Origin: Dehalococcoidia bacterium
GTDB taxonomy: Bacteria > Chloroflexota > Dehalococcoidia > UBA2979
NCBI GenBank assembly: GCA_963694535.1
Contig: CAVODE010000001.1
Location: forward strand, 26,134 to 90,133
Length of the DNA stretch: 64,000 nt
Reading direction: 5' to 3'
The notes below the pieces were generated by a model, which did not search any database, had not been told where the DNA came from, and saw nothing but the letters and a program-made list of their open reading frames with translations. A program made the position numbers and the translations under genes. Below, piece by piece: positions 46,526-55,277 of the stretch (the stretch's first letter is position 1; each line of letters begins with the position of its first letter).

Positions 46526-48190
46526 ATGAGTACTGCTCCAGGCGGAATTAGTGGATCTGAATTGTTGGCACGTCAAATGAGAGATGAAGGTGTTGAAGAT
46601 CTCTTTTATATAATGGGTGGCCCGATTATTGAGGTAGCTGGATTCGCTGCGGATCAGGGTATAAGAACTATTGATTGCCGACATGAACAGGGAGCGTCAT
46701 TTGCTGCTCACGGCTACGCCAGAGTTAAGCGTCAGCCGGGTGTATGCCTAGCGGCATCAGGACCCGCAACTACCAACTTACTAACAGGCATGGCAAACGC
46801 CTATCTTGACTGTGTTCCGATTATCGCATTGGGCGGATCCGCATCTTTACGCTCTCATGACACTGATGCGTTTCAGGAGTATGACCAGTTAGCCATGGCG
46901 CGACCAGTAACAAGATGGGCTGCCCGAGTGAATCATACAGATCGGCTCCCAGAATATTTCAACATGGCTCGTCGAAAAGCGATCACCGGCAAGCCGGGTC
47001 CGACATATCTCGATCTTCCGGGCGAGGTTCTATACGGCCGAGTTGAGCAGGAATCTGTATGGTTTCCAAAAGGTGGAACCCCGGCCCCGCGTCCATACCC
47101 TGATGAGGGTGAAATCGAAAAAGCAATTGAACTTCTGTCCAAAGCAGAGAGACCAGTTGTCATTGCTGGTTCGGGAGTATTTTGGTCAGCAGCTGGGGAC
47201 CAGCTGCGAGAGTTCGTTGAGGCTACTCAGATTCCTTTTTTTACGACCCCTCAAGCTCGAGGTATTGTTCCAGAAGATCATGATTTGGCCTATTTGGGAG
47301 CTCGTGGACAAGCATTTCGAGAAGCAGATGTAATTGTTGTGGTGGGAACTCGATTTAACTTCATTATTTCATTTGGACATGCACCTCGATTTGCTCCTGA
47401 TGTAAAGGTTATTCATATTGACGTAGATGCGAGCGAGCTCGGACATAACCGTCCAGTCGACGTTCCAATAGCTGCAGATGCCCGTGTTGCACTTACTAAG
47501 TTAACAGCAGCAGCAAAAGATGCAGGGATTGGAACGTCCGATAATTGGCGAGCACAATTGGCCGAACTTGATGATCGAAAGCGTGAACAAAGCCGGATGT
47601 CAGCGGAGAGCGATCAGACTCCGATACACCCGCTGAGGGTAGCTGAGGAGATAGTTAACTTCGTTGATAGAGATGCAATTATTTCAGTTGATGGTATGGA
47701 GACACTTAACTTCGGAAGACAATGGATTCCTTCATTTGTTGAGGGTGCGAGATTGAATTCCGGACCAAATGGATGTATGGGTGTAGGAATACCTTTTGCA
47801 ATGGGTGCCCAAGTTGCTGCGCCGGGACGTCAGGTTGTTGCGTTTGTCGGCGATGGATCTTTTTTAATGAATATCCAGGAATTTGATACGATGGTTCGTC
47901 ATAACCTTCCGGTTATTGCCGTCGTCAGCAATAATGGTGGTTGGACTGGTGGTGACAACACCACACCTGGTAGAAGTTTGGGTTTTGGCCAGCAATATCA
48001 CAAAGTGGTTGAGGCACTCGGTGGATACGGCGAGTTAGTAACTGATCCGAACGATCTCCACAATGCTTTGGAACGCGCTGCTGAAAGTGGGAAGCCATCT
48101 TGTATTAACGTTCATGTTGAAGAGCACGCCAGAGCTACGACTGTTGCGTTTGGTGGTTATTCTACAATGATGTCTCGATCGGATAGCTAA
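46526..48190 (+). CDS. Thiamine-pyrophosphate-dependent enzyme (acetolactate synthase / oxalyl-CoA decarboxylase superfamily)
   Basis: 554 aa. N-terminal Pyr domain, central domain, C-terminal TPP-binding GDG(S)F...NN motif (VGDGSFLMNIQEFDT...VSNNGGW). Confidence 0.8.
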   Translation: MSTAPGGISGSELLARQMRDEGVEDLFYIMGGPIIEVAGFAADQGIRTIDCRHEQGASFAAHGYARVKRQPGVCLAASGPATTNLLTGMANAYLDCVPIIALGGSASLRSHDTDAFQEYDQLAMARPVTRWAARVNHTDRLPEYFNMARRKAITGKPGPTYLDLPGEVLYGRVEQESVWFPKGGTPAPRPYPDEGEIEKAIELLSKAERPVVIAGSGVFWSAAGDQLREFVEATQIPFFTTPQARGIVPEDHDLAYLGARGQAFREADVIVVVGTRFNFIISFGHAPRFAPDVKVIHIDVDASELGHNRPVDVPIAADARVALTKLTAAAKDAGIGTSDNWRAQLAELDDRKREQSRMSAESDQTPIHPLRVAEEIVNFVDRDAIISVDGMETLNFGRQWIPSFVEGARLNSGPNGCMGVGIPFAMGAQVAAPGRQVVAFVGDGSFLMNIQEFDTMVRHNLPVIAVVSNNGGWTGGDNTTPGRSLGFGQQYHKVVEALGGYGELVTDPNDLHNALERAAESGKPSCINVHVEEHARATTVAFGGYSTMMSRSDS

Positions 48191-48212
48191 CATTTGTTTC
48201 GAGACAACTTAA

Positions 48213-49376
48213 ATGTTAGGTCGATTTGAGGCTGATCTGGAAGATGCGCTCAGTGAGGGAAAAATTCCCGGGCTTGTCGTTGGTTTGACATCAGGCGAAT
48301 CTACTCAATATGAGGCTGCATTCGGAATGCGATCGACTCGTACTTCTAGCCCGATGACAGTCGATACTGTCTTCAATATTGCGTCTATGACCAAACCAAT
48401 TGCAGGAGCTGCAATTATGCAGCTGGTTGAAAAAAAGATTTTAGATCTGGATACACCTGCTAGCGCGATTATTCCATATCTGGGGGAAGTCAAAGTATTG
48501 GAAGGGTTTAGTGCAACTGGTGAGGCGGTTACCCGCTCACCTAAGAGTTCAATAACATTGCGCCATCTACTAACGCACACTTCTGGTTTCAGCTCGGATT
48601 GGTGTAATGTCCTTCTAGATCAGTACCTATCGACCACACGGCATCCCAGAATGTCTACTGGGAAAAAGAAAGCTTTGAAAGTTCCTTTGGTGTTTGACCC
48701 TGGTGAGAAGTGGGGATACGGGGTCAGTATAGATTGGGCAGGATTGATACTCGAAGAAGTAACCGGCATTACTCTTCATGAATATATCAAAATGTATATA
48801 ACTGATCCATTGGGCATGTTTGATACGACATACTTCCCGTCAGACGAAATGAAATCCAGAATGGCATCGGTTCATACACCTCAAATCAATAAAGGCTTTG
48901 AGGCCAACGAGCATGTCGCGATATTAGATCGAGAATATTGGGGTGGCGGTGGTGGCATGTATTCGACCCTCGGCGACTATATGAGATTTATTCGAATGAT
49001 TCTGAATGATGGCAAGGCAGCTAATTTTGAATTATTTAAGCCTGATACCATCAAACTTATGACGCAGAATGCGATGGGAGATAATCGAGTAGAGATGCTC
49101 ATGTCGGCTGACAAAAATATTGCCAACGACGCAGAATTTTTCCCGGGATTAAAAAAGACATGGGGGCTTACGTTCCAAATTAATGAGCAAAAAACTCCAA
49201 CCGGCCGATCTCCGGGATCCTTGAGTTGGTCAGGTATATTTAATACATACTTCTGGATAGACCCTGAGAGAAATATTGGTGGTGTTTTTCTTTCCCAACT
49301 TCGTCCATGGATGGACGTATCAGCGCTCTCTCTCTTTGAGAAATTTGAGACATCGGTCTATCAAGATTTTGTTTAG
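48213..49376 (+). CDS. Serine hydrolase (class C beta-lactamase / esterase family)
   Basis: S-x-x-K motif SMTKP. 387 aa. Confidence 0.7.
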   Translation: MLGRFEADLEDALSEGKIPGLVVGLTSGESTQYEAAFGMRSTRTSSPMTVDTVFNIASMTKPIAGAAIMQLVEKKILDLDTPASAIIPYLGEVKVLEGFSATGEAVTRSPKSSITLRHLLTHTSGFSSDWCNVLLDQYLSTTRHPRMSTGKKKALKVPLVFDPGEKWGYGVSIDWAGLILEEVTGITLHEYIKMYITDPLGMFDTTYFPSDEMKSRMASVHTPQINKGFEANEHVAILDREYWGGGGGMYSTLGDYMRFIRMILNDGKAANFELFKPDTIKLMTQNAMGDNRVEMLMSADKNIANDAEFFPGLKKTWGLTFQINEQKTPTGRSPGSLSWSGIFNTYFWIDPERNIGGVFLSQLRPWMDVSALSLFEKFETSVYQDFV

Positions 49377-49380
49377 GACC

Positions 49381-50355
49381 TTAGCTGGCACTCCACGGAA
49401 GTGATCGAGGTTGCAGGACTTGTCGTAACTCCCCATCAGCGACAACCACGATTAGATCGAGCATTCCATACATGGAAGGGCTCATTCCTTTTATCGCTGT
49501 GGTGACTAGTTCCTGATCTATATGAGTGACGGCAGTGGTGACCACCAGTACTTTCATATCAACGGTCGACATATCTGATTGTTGTACCTGTTTTAATAAC
49601 CTTCGGAGATCTCGTCGGACTGGGGTTCCATCATGGGGATCTAGTTCAGGTGGTGGTGAAATAACAGCCACTCCTGATTTTAGTGTTTCGGGCAGGTGCG
49701 AAATAGTCCAATGATCAAAGATGTCTAACTCAGTTAGTTCGCCTTCGCGCAGGAGCATCGCCCTATCTCGTATCTGAGTCATCATGGATTCTAGTTCTGC
49801 TCGCTCTTTTGGTAATCTCGATATTTTATGAGAATCTAAATGAAACGATCCTTGTACACCGTCAGACAAAGCAAGCCATTCTGTAGAAAAACCTCCTGTA
49901 ACGGACATGTAGGCGCCCGTATTTTCAAGCTTTGCGAGTGTTACGACTCGAGGTATCCTAATTTCTCTTCGCTCATCAGTTGAAATTCCACGCATTCCTT
50001 TCAGGAGTTGTAGTCTTAATTCAGATATGTACGGTTCGGTCGACGGCAGTTGGACCTTTGGAGGGACCCAAACTGCGTACGCGCCTTCTTCGATACTTTC
50101 ATCAGAGACCATGTCGTCAGTGAGCAAGCCACCAAGTTGATCGGTTATTGTCGCATGTTCAGCCGCGGTCCACAGTTCAGCTATGAATACTCCGATCGTT
50201 CGGTTCCGTTGAGTGATTAGTGCGTCAAACCCAATCTCTTCCGCATTTTTTGCCGGCCGATCCGATGGTCGAAAAGTTCTGTAAAATTTCTCACTCATCC
50301 ATGCTGCGAGAAGATGGAGGAGAACCATTTGGCTAGTCATTGGTGTTAACGGCAT
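49381..50355 (-). CDS. Hypothetical protein (324 aa)
   Basis: Long clean ORF with no recognisable motif. Confidence 0.4.
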   Translation of the reverse strand: MPLTPMTSQMVLLHLLAAWMSEKFYRTFRPSDRPAKNAEEIGFDALITQRNRTIGVFIAELWTAAEHATITDQLGGLLTDDMVSDESIEEGAYAVWVPPKVQLPSTEPYISELRLQLLKGMRGISTDERREIRIPRVVTLAKLENTGAYMSVTGGFSTEWLALSDGVQGSFHLDSHKISRLPKERAELESMMTQIRDRAMLLREGELTELDIFDHWTISHLPETLKSGVAVISPPPELDPHDGTPVRRDLRRLLKQVQQSDMSTVDMKVLVVTTAVTHIDQELVTTAIKGMSPSMYGMLDLIVVVADGELRQVLQPRSLPWSAS

Positions 50356-50388: not shown

Positions 50389-50808
50389 CTATTCAGATGG
50401 AGCACTAGATTTTCTGAGAAGCCACGGATCGACTCCGTTTCTTACTAATTGAACAATGATGTTGATGTTTAGTCCAAGAAAAAGGAAAACACAGAGTATT
50501 TTTACAAGGTTTGCAGGTAAGCCCGAGCCGTGTCCTACACGTTGCAGTACTACGACTAGTGCGATGGCTGCAAACAAGGTGATACCTAAACCACCAATCC
50601 AATCCCATGACTTGATAAAGCGCGAAAATGCACCAAGAATACCTGCACCAATTGCAATATTTACAGCAACCCCGCCAAGCAGTGCTCCTAGCATTGATGT
50701 GTCATGAAAATTCCATAGATCGAAAGCGGAAAGGACTAACCACATTGCGAGCATGGGAGCAGTCATTGCGAATAAAATCCCGATCATGTCACGTTTTTGA
50801 AAGCGCAT
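50389..50808 (-). CDS. Hypothetical membrane protein (139 aa, 4 TM)
   Basis: Hydropathy pattern only. Confidence 0.4.
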   Translation of the reverse strand: MRFQKRDMIGILFAMTAPMLAMWLVLSAFDLWNFHDTSMLGALLGGVAVNIAIGAGILGAFSRFIKSWDWIGGLGITLFAAIALVVVLQRVGHGSGLPANLVKILCVFLFLGLNINIIVQLVRNGVDPWLLRKSSAPSE

Positions 50809-50865: not shown

Positions 50866-51630
50866 TTACGTGCCGCTTCTGCTCTGCGCGCCATCGACTG
50901 GTAAGGTTGCGCCAATAACCCAGGATGCTCTAGGCGAGGCCAGCCAGACGACTGCGTCTGCCACCTCTTCAGGTTTGCCGAATCTACCGCCAGGGATTTC
51001 AGTGCGAATAAATTCTTCCATCCCCTCTGGATCCGAGATTAGTCTATTCCCCCAGGAACCGCCTTCAAAGGCAATCGATCCTGGTGCAATATTGTTCACT
51101 CTGATTCCTTCAGTCACCCAATCGCGGGCGTAGGCATTTGACAATGCAATTTGCGCTGCCTTTGACGTTTGGTATTGAGCAGGTCCACCATACTCTCGAC
51201 CGAAGATTGAAGAAATATTTACTACGGCCGCGTGATTAGATTTCATCAATTCAGCTTTCAAAGCCTCCATTATCAACAAAGGGGCGAACGTATTGAGTTC
51301 GAACGAAGCTCGCCAATTTGCTTCGATCTCCATATTACGAATAGTCGCACCTGCGTTGTTAACTAATATGTCCACGCCTGATAATCGTTCTTGTGTATAT
51401 TCTAAAATTTCTAGCGGCGCAGTCGCCTCGGTTACATCACAGGCAAGAATTTCAATTTTGGAGGAAGTTATTCCTTCTAATTCATTTTTTGTCTGTTCCA
51501 ATATTTCTTGGTTTCGCGCCACAAGAAGTAAGTGTGCACCTTCCACAGCAAATGCCGTAGCTATTGATTTCCCGATACCACGGGATGCGCCTGTGATGAC
51601 TACGTTACTGTTTTCGAGTTTTAAATCCAT
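50866..51630 (-). CDS. SDR family oxidoreductase
   Basis: TGASRGIGKS Rossmann motif, NNAG, YQTSK catalytic motif. Confidence 0.85.
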   Translation of the reverse strand: MDLKLENSNVVITGASRGIGKSIATAFAVEGAHLLLVARNQEILEQTKNELEGITSSKIEILACDVTEATAPLEILEYTQERLSGVDILVNNAGATIRNMEIEANWRASFELNTFAPLLIMEALKAELMKSNHAAVVNISSIFGREYGGPAQYQTSKAAQIALSNAYARDWVTEGIRVNNIAPGSIAFEGGSWGNRLISDPEGMEEFIRTEIPGGRFGKPEEVADAVVWLASPRASWVIGATLPVDGAQSRSGT

Positions 51631-51655: not shown

Positions 51656-52450
51656 ATGCTAATTTTCGACTTTTCGGTGCCACTGCGCTACGCTCATCCA
51701 ATGAGTGTAGAGATAAAAATTATCGAACAGATTGCAATCGTAAGCTTCAGTAAAGCTACATCCACATGTGGAATTTTTGAATCCGAGTCGCTCTTTAATT
51801 CTCTCCAGAATATAGAGCATAACGAGAATATTGATGTTGTTATATTGAAGAACGTTGAACGGTATGGGACAGAGTGGGATCTAGTATCTGAGCCCCGGGG
51901 GAGTAGTATTCAGGGTAAGATTTCTAATCTAGTCGCGGGCATTGACCTCTTATCACGTTTCCGACAGCCGGTTATCGCAACTGCCGATGGAAAAACTATT
52001 GGCCCTGGAATGGAACTATTTGTATCGGCAGATATTCGACTATGTGATAGTTCAGCGTTGTTTGGTTTGCAAGGAATTACGGACGGTTTTTTGCCGCTCA
52101 GTGGTGCGGGGCAGCGTCTTATTCGAGCAATTGGGCGTTCAAGTTCGCTTAGACTGTTATTGCTCGGCGAGCTCATTAGCTCGGATGAATCATTGCGCGT
52201 TGGGTTGGTATCTTCGCTCTCAGAAGACACCTTCGATGCGGCACTTGAGCTAGCGAAAACTATTTCAACTCGCGGACCCTTGGCAATTAGAGCAGCTAAA
52301 GAGGCTCTTTATCGAGGAGGTGAGATGACTCTCGCGCAAGGCCTGCGATATGAATTAGATTTGACGATTCTGCTACAGTCGACGTCTGATCGAGCTGAGG
52401 GTGTCAGCGCCTTTATGCAAAAACGCCAGCCTCATTTCGAAGGTAAATAA
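51656..52450 (+). CDS. Enoyl-CoA hydratase/isomerase (crotonase) family protein
   Basis: Crotonase fold blocks (ATADGKTIGPGMELFVSADIRL). The start may be the internal ATG at 51701. Confidence 0.7.
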   Translation: MLIFDFSVPLRYAHPMSVEIKIIEQIAIVSFSKATSTCGIFESESLFNSLQNIEHNENIDVVILKNVERYGTEWDLVSEPRGSSIQGKISNLVAGIDLLSRFRQPVIATADGKTIGPGMELFVSADIRLCDSSALFGLQGITDGFLPLSGAGQRLIRAIGRSSSLRLLLLGELISSDESLRVGLVSSLSEDTFDAALELAKTISTRGPLAIRAAKEALYRGGEMTLAQGLRYELDLTILLQSTSDRAEGVSAFMQKRQPHFEGK

Positions 52451-52564
52451 TCTTATTCCAAGAATAAAAAAAGCGACTTATTGGCGCATAGGTTTTCTTT
52501 TCTCTGGTCTGTACTATCCTTTACGACAATACATTATCGTGAACCGCAAATAGTGGGGGTATTA

Positions 52565-52816
52565 ATGAACGTTGTGCTGAATACTGATGAGACAAATGTC
52601 GTTCTGGCATTAGTGACATCCCAAATCTTGGACCATCTTGATTTATCAACTGATGGGAAGGAATTAATTAGAGGTTGGAGACGAGATCACAATATCGGAT
52701 CAAGTAGCCTTAATGACTTTGCTGTTGAGTTGAACGAGGCCGTGGGAAATTTCATTGACGGCAATACTCGCCGAATGATTCGTCAAAGAGGAAAGATTAA
52801 AACTCTCGAGCGTTAG
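52565..52816 (+). CDS. Small hypothetical protein, paralog A (83 aa)
   Basis: RBS-like GGGGG 8 nt upstream. Alignable to the next ORF (MNVVLNTDETNVVLALVTSQILDHLDLS...W..D versus MKVEFTVDECHQMFEAVITSLNDLDMT...W..D). Confidence 0.45.
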   Translation: MNVVLNTDETNVVLALVTSQILDHLDLSTDGKELIRGWRRDHNIGSSSLNDFAVELNEAVGNFIDGNTRRMIRQRGKIKTLER

Positions 52817-52851
52817 TGAAAAAAATGCCAATTTATCAAGGAGTACGATAA

Positions 52852-53088
52852 ATGAAAGTTGAATTTACTGTAGACGAATGCCACCAGATGTTTGAGGCAG
52901 TTATCACTAGCCTGAATGATCTCGATATGACAGCGGAAGATAAGTACGCGCTGACACACTGGCAAACAAATGATATGAAGCCCGGATCTGTGCTAATGAA
53001 TCATCTTGCTGAAAAAATTAATAGTGAAGTTCAGGGCCAGCACGATCGTTCAGAGGTCTCACCTATTAAAAAGCCTGATTGGGCTTGA
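52852..53088 (+). CDS. Small hypothetical protein, paralog B (78 aa)
   Basis: Strong RBS AGGAG 8 nt upstream. Paralogous to the preceding ORF. Confidence 0.5.
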   Translation: MKVEFTVDECHQMFEAVITSLNDLDMTAEDKYALTHWQTNDMKPGSVLMNHLAEKINSEVQGQHDRSEVSPIKKPDWA

Positions 53089-53103: not shown

Positions 53104-53847
53104 ATGTCTGGCGCGAATGATATAGGCCCATATGTAGAACTCAATCGAGACGAATTAGGTGTGTACACAATCACACTAAATCGCCCCAACCGAATAAACG
53201 CCATCAATCTTGCGATGCGCGATGAGTTATGGCAGATTTTTTTATTACTCAGAGATGACCCAACAGCTAAATGTGCGATTTTGAGAGGTATTGGCCTAAA
53301 GGGATTTTCTGCGGGTGCAGATATATCAGAATTTGGAAGCTCTCCGTCATTACATGAATCTCGTGAAGCTCGTTTGAATCGAGATTTATGGGGATTAATG
53401 GCAGAACTAGACATACCCTTGATAAGTGTGCTGCACGGATTTACGTATGGTGCTGGATTGGAAATGTCTCTCTACTGCGATCTGAGAGTAGCTTCGGAAG
53501 ATAGTCAGTTGGCTTTGCCTGAAGTGACACTTGGCTATATTCCATCAGCTGGAGGAACGCAAACAATTTCCCGCCATCTGAAGCAATCAGATGCGGCGCT
53601 TATGGCGATTTCTGGACTACCGATCAGCGCCGAGGCTGCATACTTGAAAGGACTAGTTCATCAAGTTGTTCCCATAGAAGAAATTGATGACGTTGCTATT
53701 GAATGGGCTCGTAAATTGGCTACGTATGATTCAGAGGTTGTTCGGGCGCTGAAACGGACTCTCCGAGAAGGATCTGATCTCCCACTCGATGCAGCTGTCG
53801 CTGCCGAAAAAATTCAGTCTGTGAATATTGTTGCTAGGACTCAATGA
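53104..53847 (+). CDS. Enoyl-CoA hydratase/isomerase (crotonase) family protein
   Basis: Crotonase blocks (FSAGADISEF; HGFTYGAGLEMSLYCDLRVA). Confidence 0.8.
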   Translation: MSGANDIGPYVELNRDELGVYTITLNRPNRINAINLAMRDELWQIFLLLRDDPTAKCAILRGIGLKGFSAGADISEFGSSPSLHESREARLNRDLWGLMAELDIPLISVLHGFTYGAGLEMSLYCDLRVASEDSQLALPEVTLGYIPSAGGTQTISRHLKQSDAALMAISGLPISAEAAYLKGLVHQVVPIEEIDDVAIEWARKLATYDSEVVRALKRTLREGSDLPLDAAVAAEKIQSVNIVARTQ

Positions 53848-53871: not shown

Positions 53872-54363
53872 ATGAGTAAATTATCTAAATTGCCTTTGGG
53901 CCCGTCGGCCTTGTTTTTGACATCCTTGTTTTTTATCGGAGTTGTATTTTGGGGCTTATTCAATAAGACGGAAATCGTCGTTAAGTATGTGGATGCAGGA
54001 CCAGTAGAGAGATTTGCTATTGGCCAAGTGGACCAAGTCGCGGATTTGCCACTCTATGTTATCGGCTTAGAGAACGGAACTCTTCGGGCGATTGATACAC
54101 GGTTAGAGGGGAGCACTTGTCTGGCGAACTGGATGCCTGATGACCCGCGTGGTAAAAGCATTAACTATCAAGCAAGTAACGGTGTGTTTAAAGACACTTG
54201 CAGTGAAAAAATATGGGCGGCCGCTGGCCATGCTATTGGTGGTGACACTCCGTTACGTACCCCGCATTTAGAACCGAGACCCGGCGTGGACGGGAAACAG
54301 CATATTTTCGTTGAATTTATTATTTTAGATAAGCTTCCATCGGATGAGAATTCCAAAAAATAA
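53872..54363 (+). CDS. Hypothetical membrane-anchored protein (163 aa)
   Basis: N-terminal TM helix plus a soluble domain with two Cys. No Rieske CxH/CxxH motifs. Confidence 0.4.
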   Translation: MSKLSKLPLGPSALFLTSLFFIGVVFWGLFNKTEIVVKYVDAGPVERFAIGQVDQVADLPLYVIGLENGTLRAIDTRLEGSTCLANWMPDDPRGKSINYQASNGVFKDTCSEKIWAAAGHAIGGDTPLRTPHLEPRPGVDGKQHIFVEFIILDKLPSDENSKK

Positions 54364-54443: not shown

Positions 54444-55277
54444 ATGGAGTACGTAATGACAACTAAGACAAATTCTTCAATGCTTGTGACTACTGATTGG
54501 TTGGCCAACCAGCTGGAAAACCTCGACTTTGTATTGATTGATGCGGGTGAACCAGATGCTTACAGGCGCGCTCATATACCAGGAGCGGTTGGCGTAGCTC
54601 ACCCGTATTTAAAGGGTAAGGGAAGCGATTTGGTCATGGATGCAGGCGATTTTGAGAAACTTGCTCGACGGTGGGGCATTTCCAATGACACACCGGTAGT
54701 CATATATGATGACAATGCTTCACTTCATGCCGCTCGTGTATGGTGGGTTTTTCAATATTTCGGCCATTTGAATGTCAAAGTCGTTGATGGAGGCTTTAAC
54801 GCTTGGCTTGATGAAGGCAGACCTATTACTTCAAAGAGCCCAAGACCTGAGGCTGGATCGTTTAACGCTTCTGTTCAGTCGGAACAGGTATGTCTGATTG
54901 AAGAATTAAAAACCCGAGTGAATTCAGATGCTGCGCCGGCTATTTGGGATACCCGCTCGGACGCAGAGTGGGAGGGCACCGAGACACGTGGTAACGATCG
55001 TAGCGGTCGGGTTCCTGGGGCGATTCATCTTGAGTGGCGCCACCTCATGCAGGGCCCTCCAGCTAGACGATTTAAGCCTCTTGAAGAAATCCGAAGCACC
55101 TTGGTTGATGCGGGGCTCAATCCAGACAGTGAAACAGTCACCTACTGCCAATCTGGTATACGAGGAGCGTTTGGTCATTTCATTCTGGCACTTCTCGGGA
55201 ATGAGTCAGTACGAAACTATGATGGTTCCATGTCAGAGTGGACAGGTGATCCAAATGCGCCACTGGTGCTGGAGTAG
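54444..55277 (+). CDS. Tandem-rhodanese sulfurtransferase (thiosulfate/3-mercaptopyruvate sulfurtransferase-like)
   Basis: Two rhodanese modules. Catalytic loop CQSGIRG in the second module. Confidence 0.75.
   Translation: MEYVMTTKTNSSMLVTTDWLANQLENLDFVLIDAGEPDAYRRAHIPGAVGVAHPYLKGKGSDLVMDAGDFEKLARRWGISNDTPVVIYDDNASLHAARVWWVFQYFGHLNVKVVDGGFNAWLDEGRPITSKSPRPEAGSFNASVQSEQVCLIEELKTRVNSDAAPAIWDTRSDAEWEGTETRGNDRSGRVPGAIHLEWRHLMQGPPARRFKPLEEIRSTLVDAGLNPDSETVTYCQSGIRGAFGHFILALLGNESVRNYDGSMSEWTGDPNAPLVLE

Follow-up and report, generated by a model that had tools for sequence, protein, structure and literature searches.

Small or degenerate subunits that are encoded beside the CoA-ester enzyme to which they are dedicated are known from the DUF35-thiolase pair BbsA-BbsB and from BbsCD with its inactive BbsC. 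Subunits of the BbsA (DUF35) and BbsC types are needed for the assembly of their CoA-ester enzymes. To our knowledge, no DUF35-like small partner has been described for crotonases, and we know of no crotonase with small subunits of the kind found here. The PaaF-PaaG system consists of two crotonase paralogs in one stable complex of stacked trimeric discs (PMC4498308). The locus analyzed in this study resembles PaaF-PaaG in that it encodes, side by side, two paralogs with the crotonase fold that belong to one CoA-ester pathway, termed ECHa and ECHb, but PaaF-PaaG needs no small subunits, whereas here two proteins of about 80 amino acids, A and B, are always encoded between the paralogs. With the Bbs systems it has in common the small gene beside a CoA-ester enzyme; DUF35 itself is a zinc-ribbon/OB fold, unrelated to A and B in fold and sequence. 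No paper on small crotonase partners or on this Dehalococcoidia cluster could be found in the literature.

Both small genes are located on the plus strand of the window, the 64-kb stretch of DNA that was analyzed, where the first-pass annotation had placed them. Gene A (52565..52816) encodes 83 amino acids with an acidic three-helix head (residues 1-61) and a basic disordered tail (residues 62-83), and gene B (52852..53088) encodes 78 amino acids with an acidic three-helix head followed by a C-terminal tail. The longest open reading frame for A starts with a TTG at 52481, but the start was set to the conserved ATG at 52565, since all orthologs begin with M-N-V-(V/I)-L-N. As had been proposed, each ATG is preceded by a purine-rich Shine-Dalgarno-like site of its own. 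Read from the sequence, these are GGGGG (52555..52559, plus strand), 5 nt upstream of the start codon of A, and AAGGAG (52838..52843, plus strand), 8 nt upstream of that of B. The description of the pair as acidic is correct for B (pI 4.8 overall, with a Glu at strand position 4) and not for A, which is approximately neutral (pI 6.1), with an acidic head (pI 4.4) and a strongly basic tail (pI 11.8). The heads of both proteins have a pI of about 4.4-4.5.

In a word-indexed search, 57 clusters were found for B and 15 for A, the homologs originating throughout from metagenomes or Chloroflexota/Dehalococcoidia MAGs and all lacking a name. The dN/dS ratio according to Nei-Gojobori was 0.03-0.29 in 26 comparisons of close pairs. 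At deeper divergence, between the window and its relatives L008 and L010, the identity was 69-70% for A and 77-78% for B, the corresponding values for ECHa and ECHb being 45% and 56%. The first-pass annotation had named missing homologs together with a dN/dS of about 1 as evidence against real proteins; homologs were found in at least 50 species, and the ratio lies far below 1. Since homologs are plentiful and dN/dS is this low, A and B are, judged by these comparisons, clearly real coding genes under strong purifying selection.

For neither protein could a meaningful match be found in Pfam or NCBIfam. PADLOC returned nothing, profile searches of PDB sequences gave nothing below E=0.5, fold searches gave no match and BFVD contained nothing significant. 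The search against PHROGs yielded no meaningful match, with one marginal hit of A to a 'DNA binding protein' (E=0.016) and no domain passing. On the basis of this single marginal PHROG match and the PADLOC and BFVD results, a phage or defense origin was rejected. With a joint A+B profile, 1.84 billion representatives (50% identity) were searched exhaustively by HMMER, resulting in 92 proteins at E<=1e-3, nearly all between 55 and 90 amino acids in length. The few longer matches contain no known domain and look like high-GC translations that are frameshifted or chimeric, and no credible Rosetta stone fusion was identified among the representatives. These searches define a family that appears to be small, narrow, unclassified and previously undescribed, which agrees with the earlier remark that the two proteins belong to no recognisable family.

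A and B share 31% identity over 62 residues (positions 1-62; BLASTP, E=2e-5 for a single comparison), and the two family profiles align over the same residues with a probability of 95.7% (hhalign, E=9.7e-9). Common to both heads are M1, V3, E9, V17, the R-x-W-R motif closing helix 2 and G45. On this sequence evidence A and B can be regarded as true paralogs. The whole-length alignment reported in the first-pass annotation corresponds to this BLASTP result. Beyond approximately residue 62 the similarity ends, and no relationship exists between the two C-terminal tails. The paralogs do lie side by side, as implied by a duplication in place, but a recent local event is not supported. The duplication is ancient, because A and B with their separate tail motifs already occur together in the loci of greatest divergence, where the identity of B falls to 37%.

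Structural models of both monomers were made with AF2, using the family alignment in the case of B. Protein B was modeled as a confident three-helix bundle (helices 7-22, 28-41 and 47-68; pLDDT 82.8), with blocks of residues 11-60 above 90 and a drop over the last 15 residues or so. The model of A has the same three-helix topology at lower confidence (pLDDT 61.8; residues 62-83 below 50) and was too weak to serve as a fold query. The low-confidence tails are the best-conserved segments of both proteins. The tail of B reads H-D-R-S-E-V-S-P-I-K-K-P-D-W, and its core S-x-I-K-K-P-D-W shows no exchange of I, K, P, D or W in 48 distinct sequences, with the S present in 98% of them. The tail of A carries the conserved motif G-N-F-I-D-x-x-T-R-R-M-x-R-x-R-G-K; within L-N-E-A-x-G-N-F-I-D-E-R-T-x-R-M-x-R-x-R-G, N57, D65, R70 and G76 are invariant and I64 and T68 reach 96%. 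These invariant tail residues are encoded by up to six synonymous codons. Since synonymous codons vary freely, the constraint acts on the peptide and not on an overlapping DNA or RNA signal, and a nucleotide-level cause of the invariance was ruled out. Conservation combined with disorder in the free state is typical of peptides that fold on a partner, and we infer that the tails of A and B are peptides that fold on a partner protein. In one further protein of 99 amino acids (P0081), an A-type head is joined directly to B-type helices 2-3 and tail (…S-A-I-M-K-P-D-W-R), which could reflect either a naturally occurring deletion that fused A to B or an error of assembly.

For the analysis of gene order, one genome per species was scanned, resulting in 50 loci, all from Dehalococcoidia/Chloroflexota MAGs. 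The order ECHa-A-B-ECHb-u163 was identified by tblastn mapping in each of the 50 species-level genomes wherever the contig was long enough, so that the comparison with related genomes suggested in the first-pass annotation gave the same placement throughout: both flanks are crotonase genes (ECH_1). The order was also found in 15 metagenome loci and in those more divergent family members for which the contig was consulted. Most loci carry in addition a divergently transcribed set, u324-mem139-(SDR). The spacer between A and B has a median length of 1 nt and is usually 0-4 nt or an overlap, often the 4-nt overlap ATGA. The median spacers are 21 nt between B and ECHb and 22 nt between ECHb and u163, the latter two genes often overlapping. 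No terminator-like sites or Rfam families were found inside the operon, including the 114-nt spacer between ECHa and A.

The metagenome scan was seeded with ECHb and continued with local HMMs for the five operon proteins. The five-gene form was present at the 15 loci with enough upstream DNA, and ECHa was found in all nine that were inspected. At five further loci (L074, L076, L078, L084 and L090), belonging to other high-GC lineages, a two-gene form of ECHb and a u163-like gene was identified without ECHa, A and B; the genes upstream are unrelated (proB or a dGTPase). Ordinary crotonases (<=43% identity) have about 30 extra C-terminal residues and no A/B. On contigs of sufficient length, A and B never occurred without an upstream ECHa, the sole exception being the 1.3-kb contig L060. 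Because ECHb-u163 occurs without A/B and ECHa, and A/B were otherwise not seen without ECHa, A and B belong with ECHa. The pair on L060 (486..983) is distant and weak and adjoins an HTH_3 gene on the opposite strand, with no crotonase in view. Its A-like protein keeps the tail motif and its B-like protein lacks K-K-P-D-W.

The upstream gene ECHa (51701..52450, plus strand) encodes a divergent crotonase and always precedes A. Its longest open reading frame (51656..52450) starts 15 codons early compared with the orthologs, which start at Met16 (51701). The downstream gene ECHb (53104..53847, plus strand) encodes a canonical hydratase-type crotonase with both catalytic glutamates, which we take to be the equivalents of Glu144 and Glu164 of rat ECH. 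Against the Pfam profile ECH_1 (cutoff 27 bits), ECHa scored 114.5 bits (E=6.6e-33) and ECHb 162.6 bits (E=1.4e-47). Neither protein reaches an equivalog cutoff in NCBIfam, the best match of ECHa being PaaF, far below the cutoff. In ECHb the loop F-S-A-G-A-D-I is present, and G-A-G-L-E and L-P-E-V are found in all orthologs. In ECHa this loop is replaced by F-G-x-G-W-S. Most ECHa orthologs keep both catalytic glutamates; at the second, the marine clade to which the window belongs has Q-G for P-E, and its ECHa may be an isomerase-type or inactive subunit.

The two enzymes also differ at the C-terminus. ECHa keeps the segment D-R-x-E-G-x-x-A-F-x-x-K-R-x-P-x-F, whereas in ECHb the match to the 251-position ECH_1 profile runs from position 4 to position 221; the last 30 or so positions are missing, including the usual D-R-x-E-G..E-K-R-x-P-x-F. 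The missing end, together with the fact that the C-terminal domain of crotonases likewise consists of three helices, suggests that A and B could be detached crotonase C-terminal domains, with the tail of B replacing the absent end of ECHb in trans; by eye, D-R-S-E-V-S-P-I-K-K-P-D-W of B resembles D-R-x-E-G-x-x-A-F-x-E-K-R-x-P-x-F. Comparison of A and B with the ECHa and ECHb family alignments in hhalign gave a probability of 0.1-0.5%. Addition of the B tail to ECHb changed the ECH_1 score from 162.6 to 162.9 bits, with shuffled tails giving 162.5-163.4 bits, whereas the tail of ECHa raised it to 181.7 bits (+19) and extended the match to profile position 250 of 251. Moreover, the truncation is common to all ECHb orthologs, including those that occur with u163 and without A/B. 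The short C-terminus of ECHb thus goes with u163, independent of A and B. An origin as a split crotonase C-terminal domain (PF00378, positions ~190-251) is extremely improbable and was rejected on the lack of hhalign homology, the lack of gain in the chimera and the two-gene loci.

From the paralogy, the purifying selection, the modeled heads, the conserved tails, the fixed gene order, the coupling of the two genes, their co-occurrence with ECHa and the undivided operon, the reading that we favor, quite possible if still tentative, is that A and B form a co-translated heterodimer whose two tails serve as docking peptides on the crotonase module. According to this model, the translationally coupled gene pair would yield A and B in equal amounts, and their acidic three-helix heads would pair. 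The two family-specific tails, disordered when free, would then dock and fold onto products of the same operon, the crotonases being the most likely ones and ECHa the candidate best linked by co-occurrence. The A:B dimer might hold together or tune a heteromeric ECHa/ECHb hydratase-isomerase assembly, for which PaaF-PaaG is a precedent as a stable complex of two crotonase paralogs. The assembly would belong to a beta-oxidation-type pathway that in most relatives is extended directly by an acyl-CoA ligase, a membrane Fe-S oxidoreductase and ETF. Several points run counter to the model. The main one is that the distance matrices of A and B, described below, correlate better with those of u163 and u324 than with those of the crotonases. 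In addition, both heads are acidic, so that head-to-head pairing is not obviously favored, the A/B-like pair on L060 lies beside an HTH gene with no crotonase in view, and we know of no crotonase with comparable subunits. A more far-reaching version is distinctly unlikely. It would make A and B a new type of crotonase-specific adaptor, a heterodimeric helical hub that puts two different invariant tails into ECHb and the divergent ECHa and thereby builds or gates a hetero-oligomer restricted to the Dehalococcoidia, or, as a variant, would have the S-x-I-K-K-P-D-W end modified to serve as a handle of the pathway. For the present, A and B stand for an unclassified protein family that accompanies an enzyme pair of a known kind, and not yet for a new mechanism.

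In size (about 80 amino acids), acidity, helical content and location amid genes for acyl-thioester enzymes, A and B resemble acyl carrier proteins. Crotonase pairs of the ECH1/ECH2 type work on ACP-bound substrates in polyketide beta-branching. This class, suggested by the stretches G-S-S-S-L and P-G-S, was rejected for want of a PP-binding match and of a conserved serine: PF00550 was not matched at E<=1 by A and B of the window nor at E<=10 by 33 family members. In acyl carrier proteins, helix 2 begins with an invariant serine that bears the phosphopantetheinyl group (D-S-L); A and B lack such a residue, Ser28 of A being Thr or Asp in distant members and B having no Ser at this position, and the residues of G-S-S-S-L and P-G-S are variable. 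Acyl-CoA-binding proteins (ACBP, PF00887) were likewise rejected, as A and B match neither the profile nor the four-helix fold and the defining motifs are absent.

Tandem paralogous helical proteins of about 80-100 amino acids are also typical of the WXG100/ESAT-6-like pairs, which form heterodimers with a C-terminal signal tail on one partner. One weak Foldseek match to such a protein was obtained (E=6.4). The W-x-G motif is absent from A and B, their invariant Trp being located in R-R-W-R at the end of helix 2 without a Gly at +2, and the model has three helices instead of a helical hairpin. Furthermore, A and B differ from this class in their fixed metabolic context and the lack of type VII secretion genes, and membership was rejected.

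Type II antitoxins consist of a folded N-terminal dimerization domain and a disordered C-terminal tail that wraps around the partner. A and B resemble them in size, in the folded head with a conserved disordered tail, in the tight coupling of their genes to those of the partner and in their likely folding upon binding. An antitoxin-like or RHH/HTH-like A:B heterodimer that autoregulates the operon, with tails sensing the enzymes or a CoA ester, was therefore considered. Besides the overall architecture (a short N-terminal strand, helices and the conserved disordered tail), the marginal PHROG match of A, its very basic tail and the HTH_3 gene next to the pair on L060 would fit such a role. However, no RHH or HTH family was matched by 33 members at E<=10 or in the PDB sequence and fold searches, and the pI of the heads (about 4.5), like the Glu at strand position 4 of B, argues against sequence-specific DNA binding through a basic N-terminal ribbon. 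The A/B genes are located in the middle of the operon and not at its head, and the conservation of the tails far exceeds the need of a sensing tail. Autoregulation by A:B is rather improbable on these grounds, and membership among the RHH proteins or antitoxins was rejected on the lack of a family match and the acidic heads. The pair further differs from type II antitoxins in that no Phd match and no toxin gene were found, the partners are metabolic enzymes, and two paralogs carry two distinct tails. Of the three roles named in the first-pass annotation (accessory, chaperone or regulatory), the evidence points to an accessory role or to docking within the crotonase module, with the closest link to ECHa, and does not favor a DNA-binding regulator.

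The gene u163 (53872..54363, plus strand) is always located 3' of ECHb and often overlaps it by 4 nt. It encodes an N-terminal transmembrane helix and a Rieske-like domain with a weak profile match to the b6f Rieske iron-sulfur protein (E=0.006). All four positions of the Rieske ligands C-x-H ... C-x-x-H are substituted, and the two cysteines at the disulfide positions are invariant. The soluble domain is predicted to be extracytoplasmic because of the basic N-terminus before the transmembrane helix and these two invariant cysteines. On the minus strand, the divergent set of the window comprises u324 (49381..50355), a highly conserved orphan, mem139 (50389..50808), a conserved orphan membrane protein, and an SDR dehydrogenase (50866..51630), which is conserved beside the operon in most relatives. 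In 20 sequences of u324, 63 columns are invariant. Its 263 database clusters are all 'hypothetical' and all from Dehalococcoidia/Chloroflexi. Neither u324 nor mem139 has a match in Pfam, NCBIfam or PDB.

Mirror-tree analysis on 22-44 related genomes, a weak method, revealed correlations of r 0.80-0.91 among the distance matrices of A, B, u163 and u324, and of 0.33-0.74 between these and ECHa/ECHb. With the marine clade removed, the former still correlate at 0.80-0.89. The weaker correlation with the crotonases would fit a different partner, or simply a higher evolutionary rate of the two enzymes in the marine clade. Such accelerated evolution explains part of the gap, and the grouping of A, B and u163 is at most suggestive. 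The same correlations, and the confinement of the orphans A, B, u163, u324 and mem139 to one lineage, would be expected if A:B worked with the membrane-associated u163, u324 and mem139, for example as cytoplasmic adaptor of a membrane complex. We regard this as unlikely: ECHb-u163 modules occur without A/B, the soluble domain of u163 is predicted to face away from the cytoplasm, and u324 and mem139 lie on the opposite strand and are absent from some loci that keep A and B (L048, L050 and L052). The correlations themselves, obtained on related genomes, are weak evidence for it.

A further explanation concerns the tails as substrates, A and/or B being a carrier or precursor whose C-terminal K-K-P-D-W is modified or processed, for instance by lysine acylation through a GNAT-like neighbor or by processing into a peptide-derived product. 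The invariance of the C-terminal core over more than 50 species is reminiscent of the precursors of peptide-derived cofactors. A weak GNAT-like gene (E=0.0026) is present in the divergent set of many relatives. It is absent from the window and from the marine clade, where the tail is intact, and the conserved genes of the module include none for a radical-SAM enzyme, a protease, a ligase or any other protein known to modify peptides. In addition, crotonase chemistry requires a thioester. A substrate role of the tails is hence highly doubtful, and docking onto the crotonases is retained as the preferred function.

Dehalococcoidia are abundant in oceans, aquifers and sediments but have hardly been cultured, and what is said of their carbon metabolism comes from annotation only. 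The core, lineage-wide operon described here combines two ordinary-looking crotonases with the five orphans A, B, u163, u324 and mem139, so that the label 'two enoyl-CoA hydratases' conceals the larger part of the machinery. Should A and B prove to be obligatory subunits, results from heterologous assays with only the crotonases would be misleading, and the pair would be the first known case of dedicated small subunits in the crotonase superfamily. Both are small, soluble and easily synthesized, which makes the question directly testable. The cautious initial reading, a conserved uncharacterized pair tied to crotonases, proved broadly right in view of the identical position in 50 species.

The surroundings of the operon differ between clades. 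Among the loci L001-L055, those of the non-marine relatives continue past the operon with genes for an AMP-forming ligase, a fused NarI/4Fe-4S/CCG membrane oxidoreductase and ETF, located between approximately 1.6 and 8 kb past B and highly conserved (62-97% identical to the copies of L003). None of the three was found within the 64-kb window. In the marine clade of the window (L006-L012), a rhodanese takes their place (54444..55277 in the window). On the other side of the cluster, a thiamine-diphosphate enzyme (554 amino acids) and a beta-lactamase-like hydrolase (387 amino acids) adjoin it at 46526..49376 on the plus strand and are kept there only in the marine clade (L006-L012 and L054). 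At the same position, other relatives carry several SDRs, an orphan of 280 amino acids, an RDD protein and the weak GNAT-like gene.
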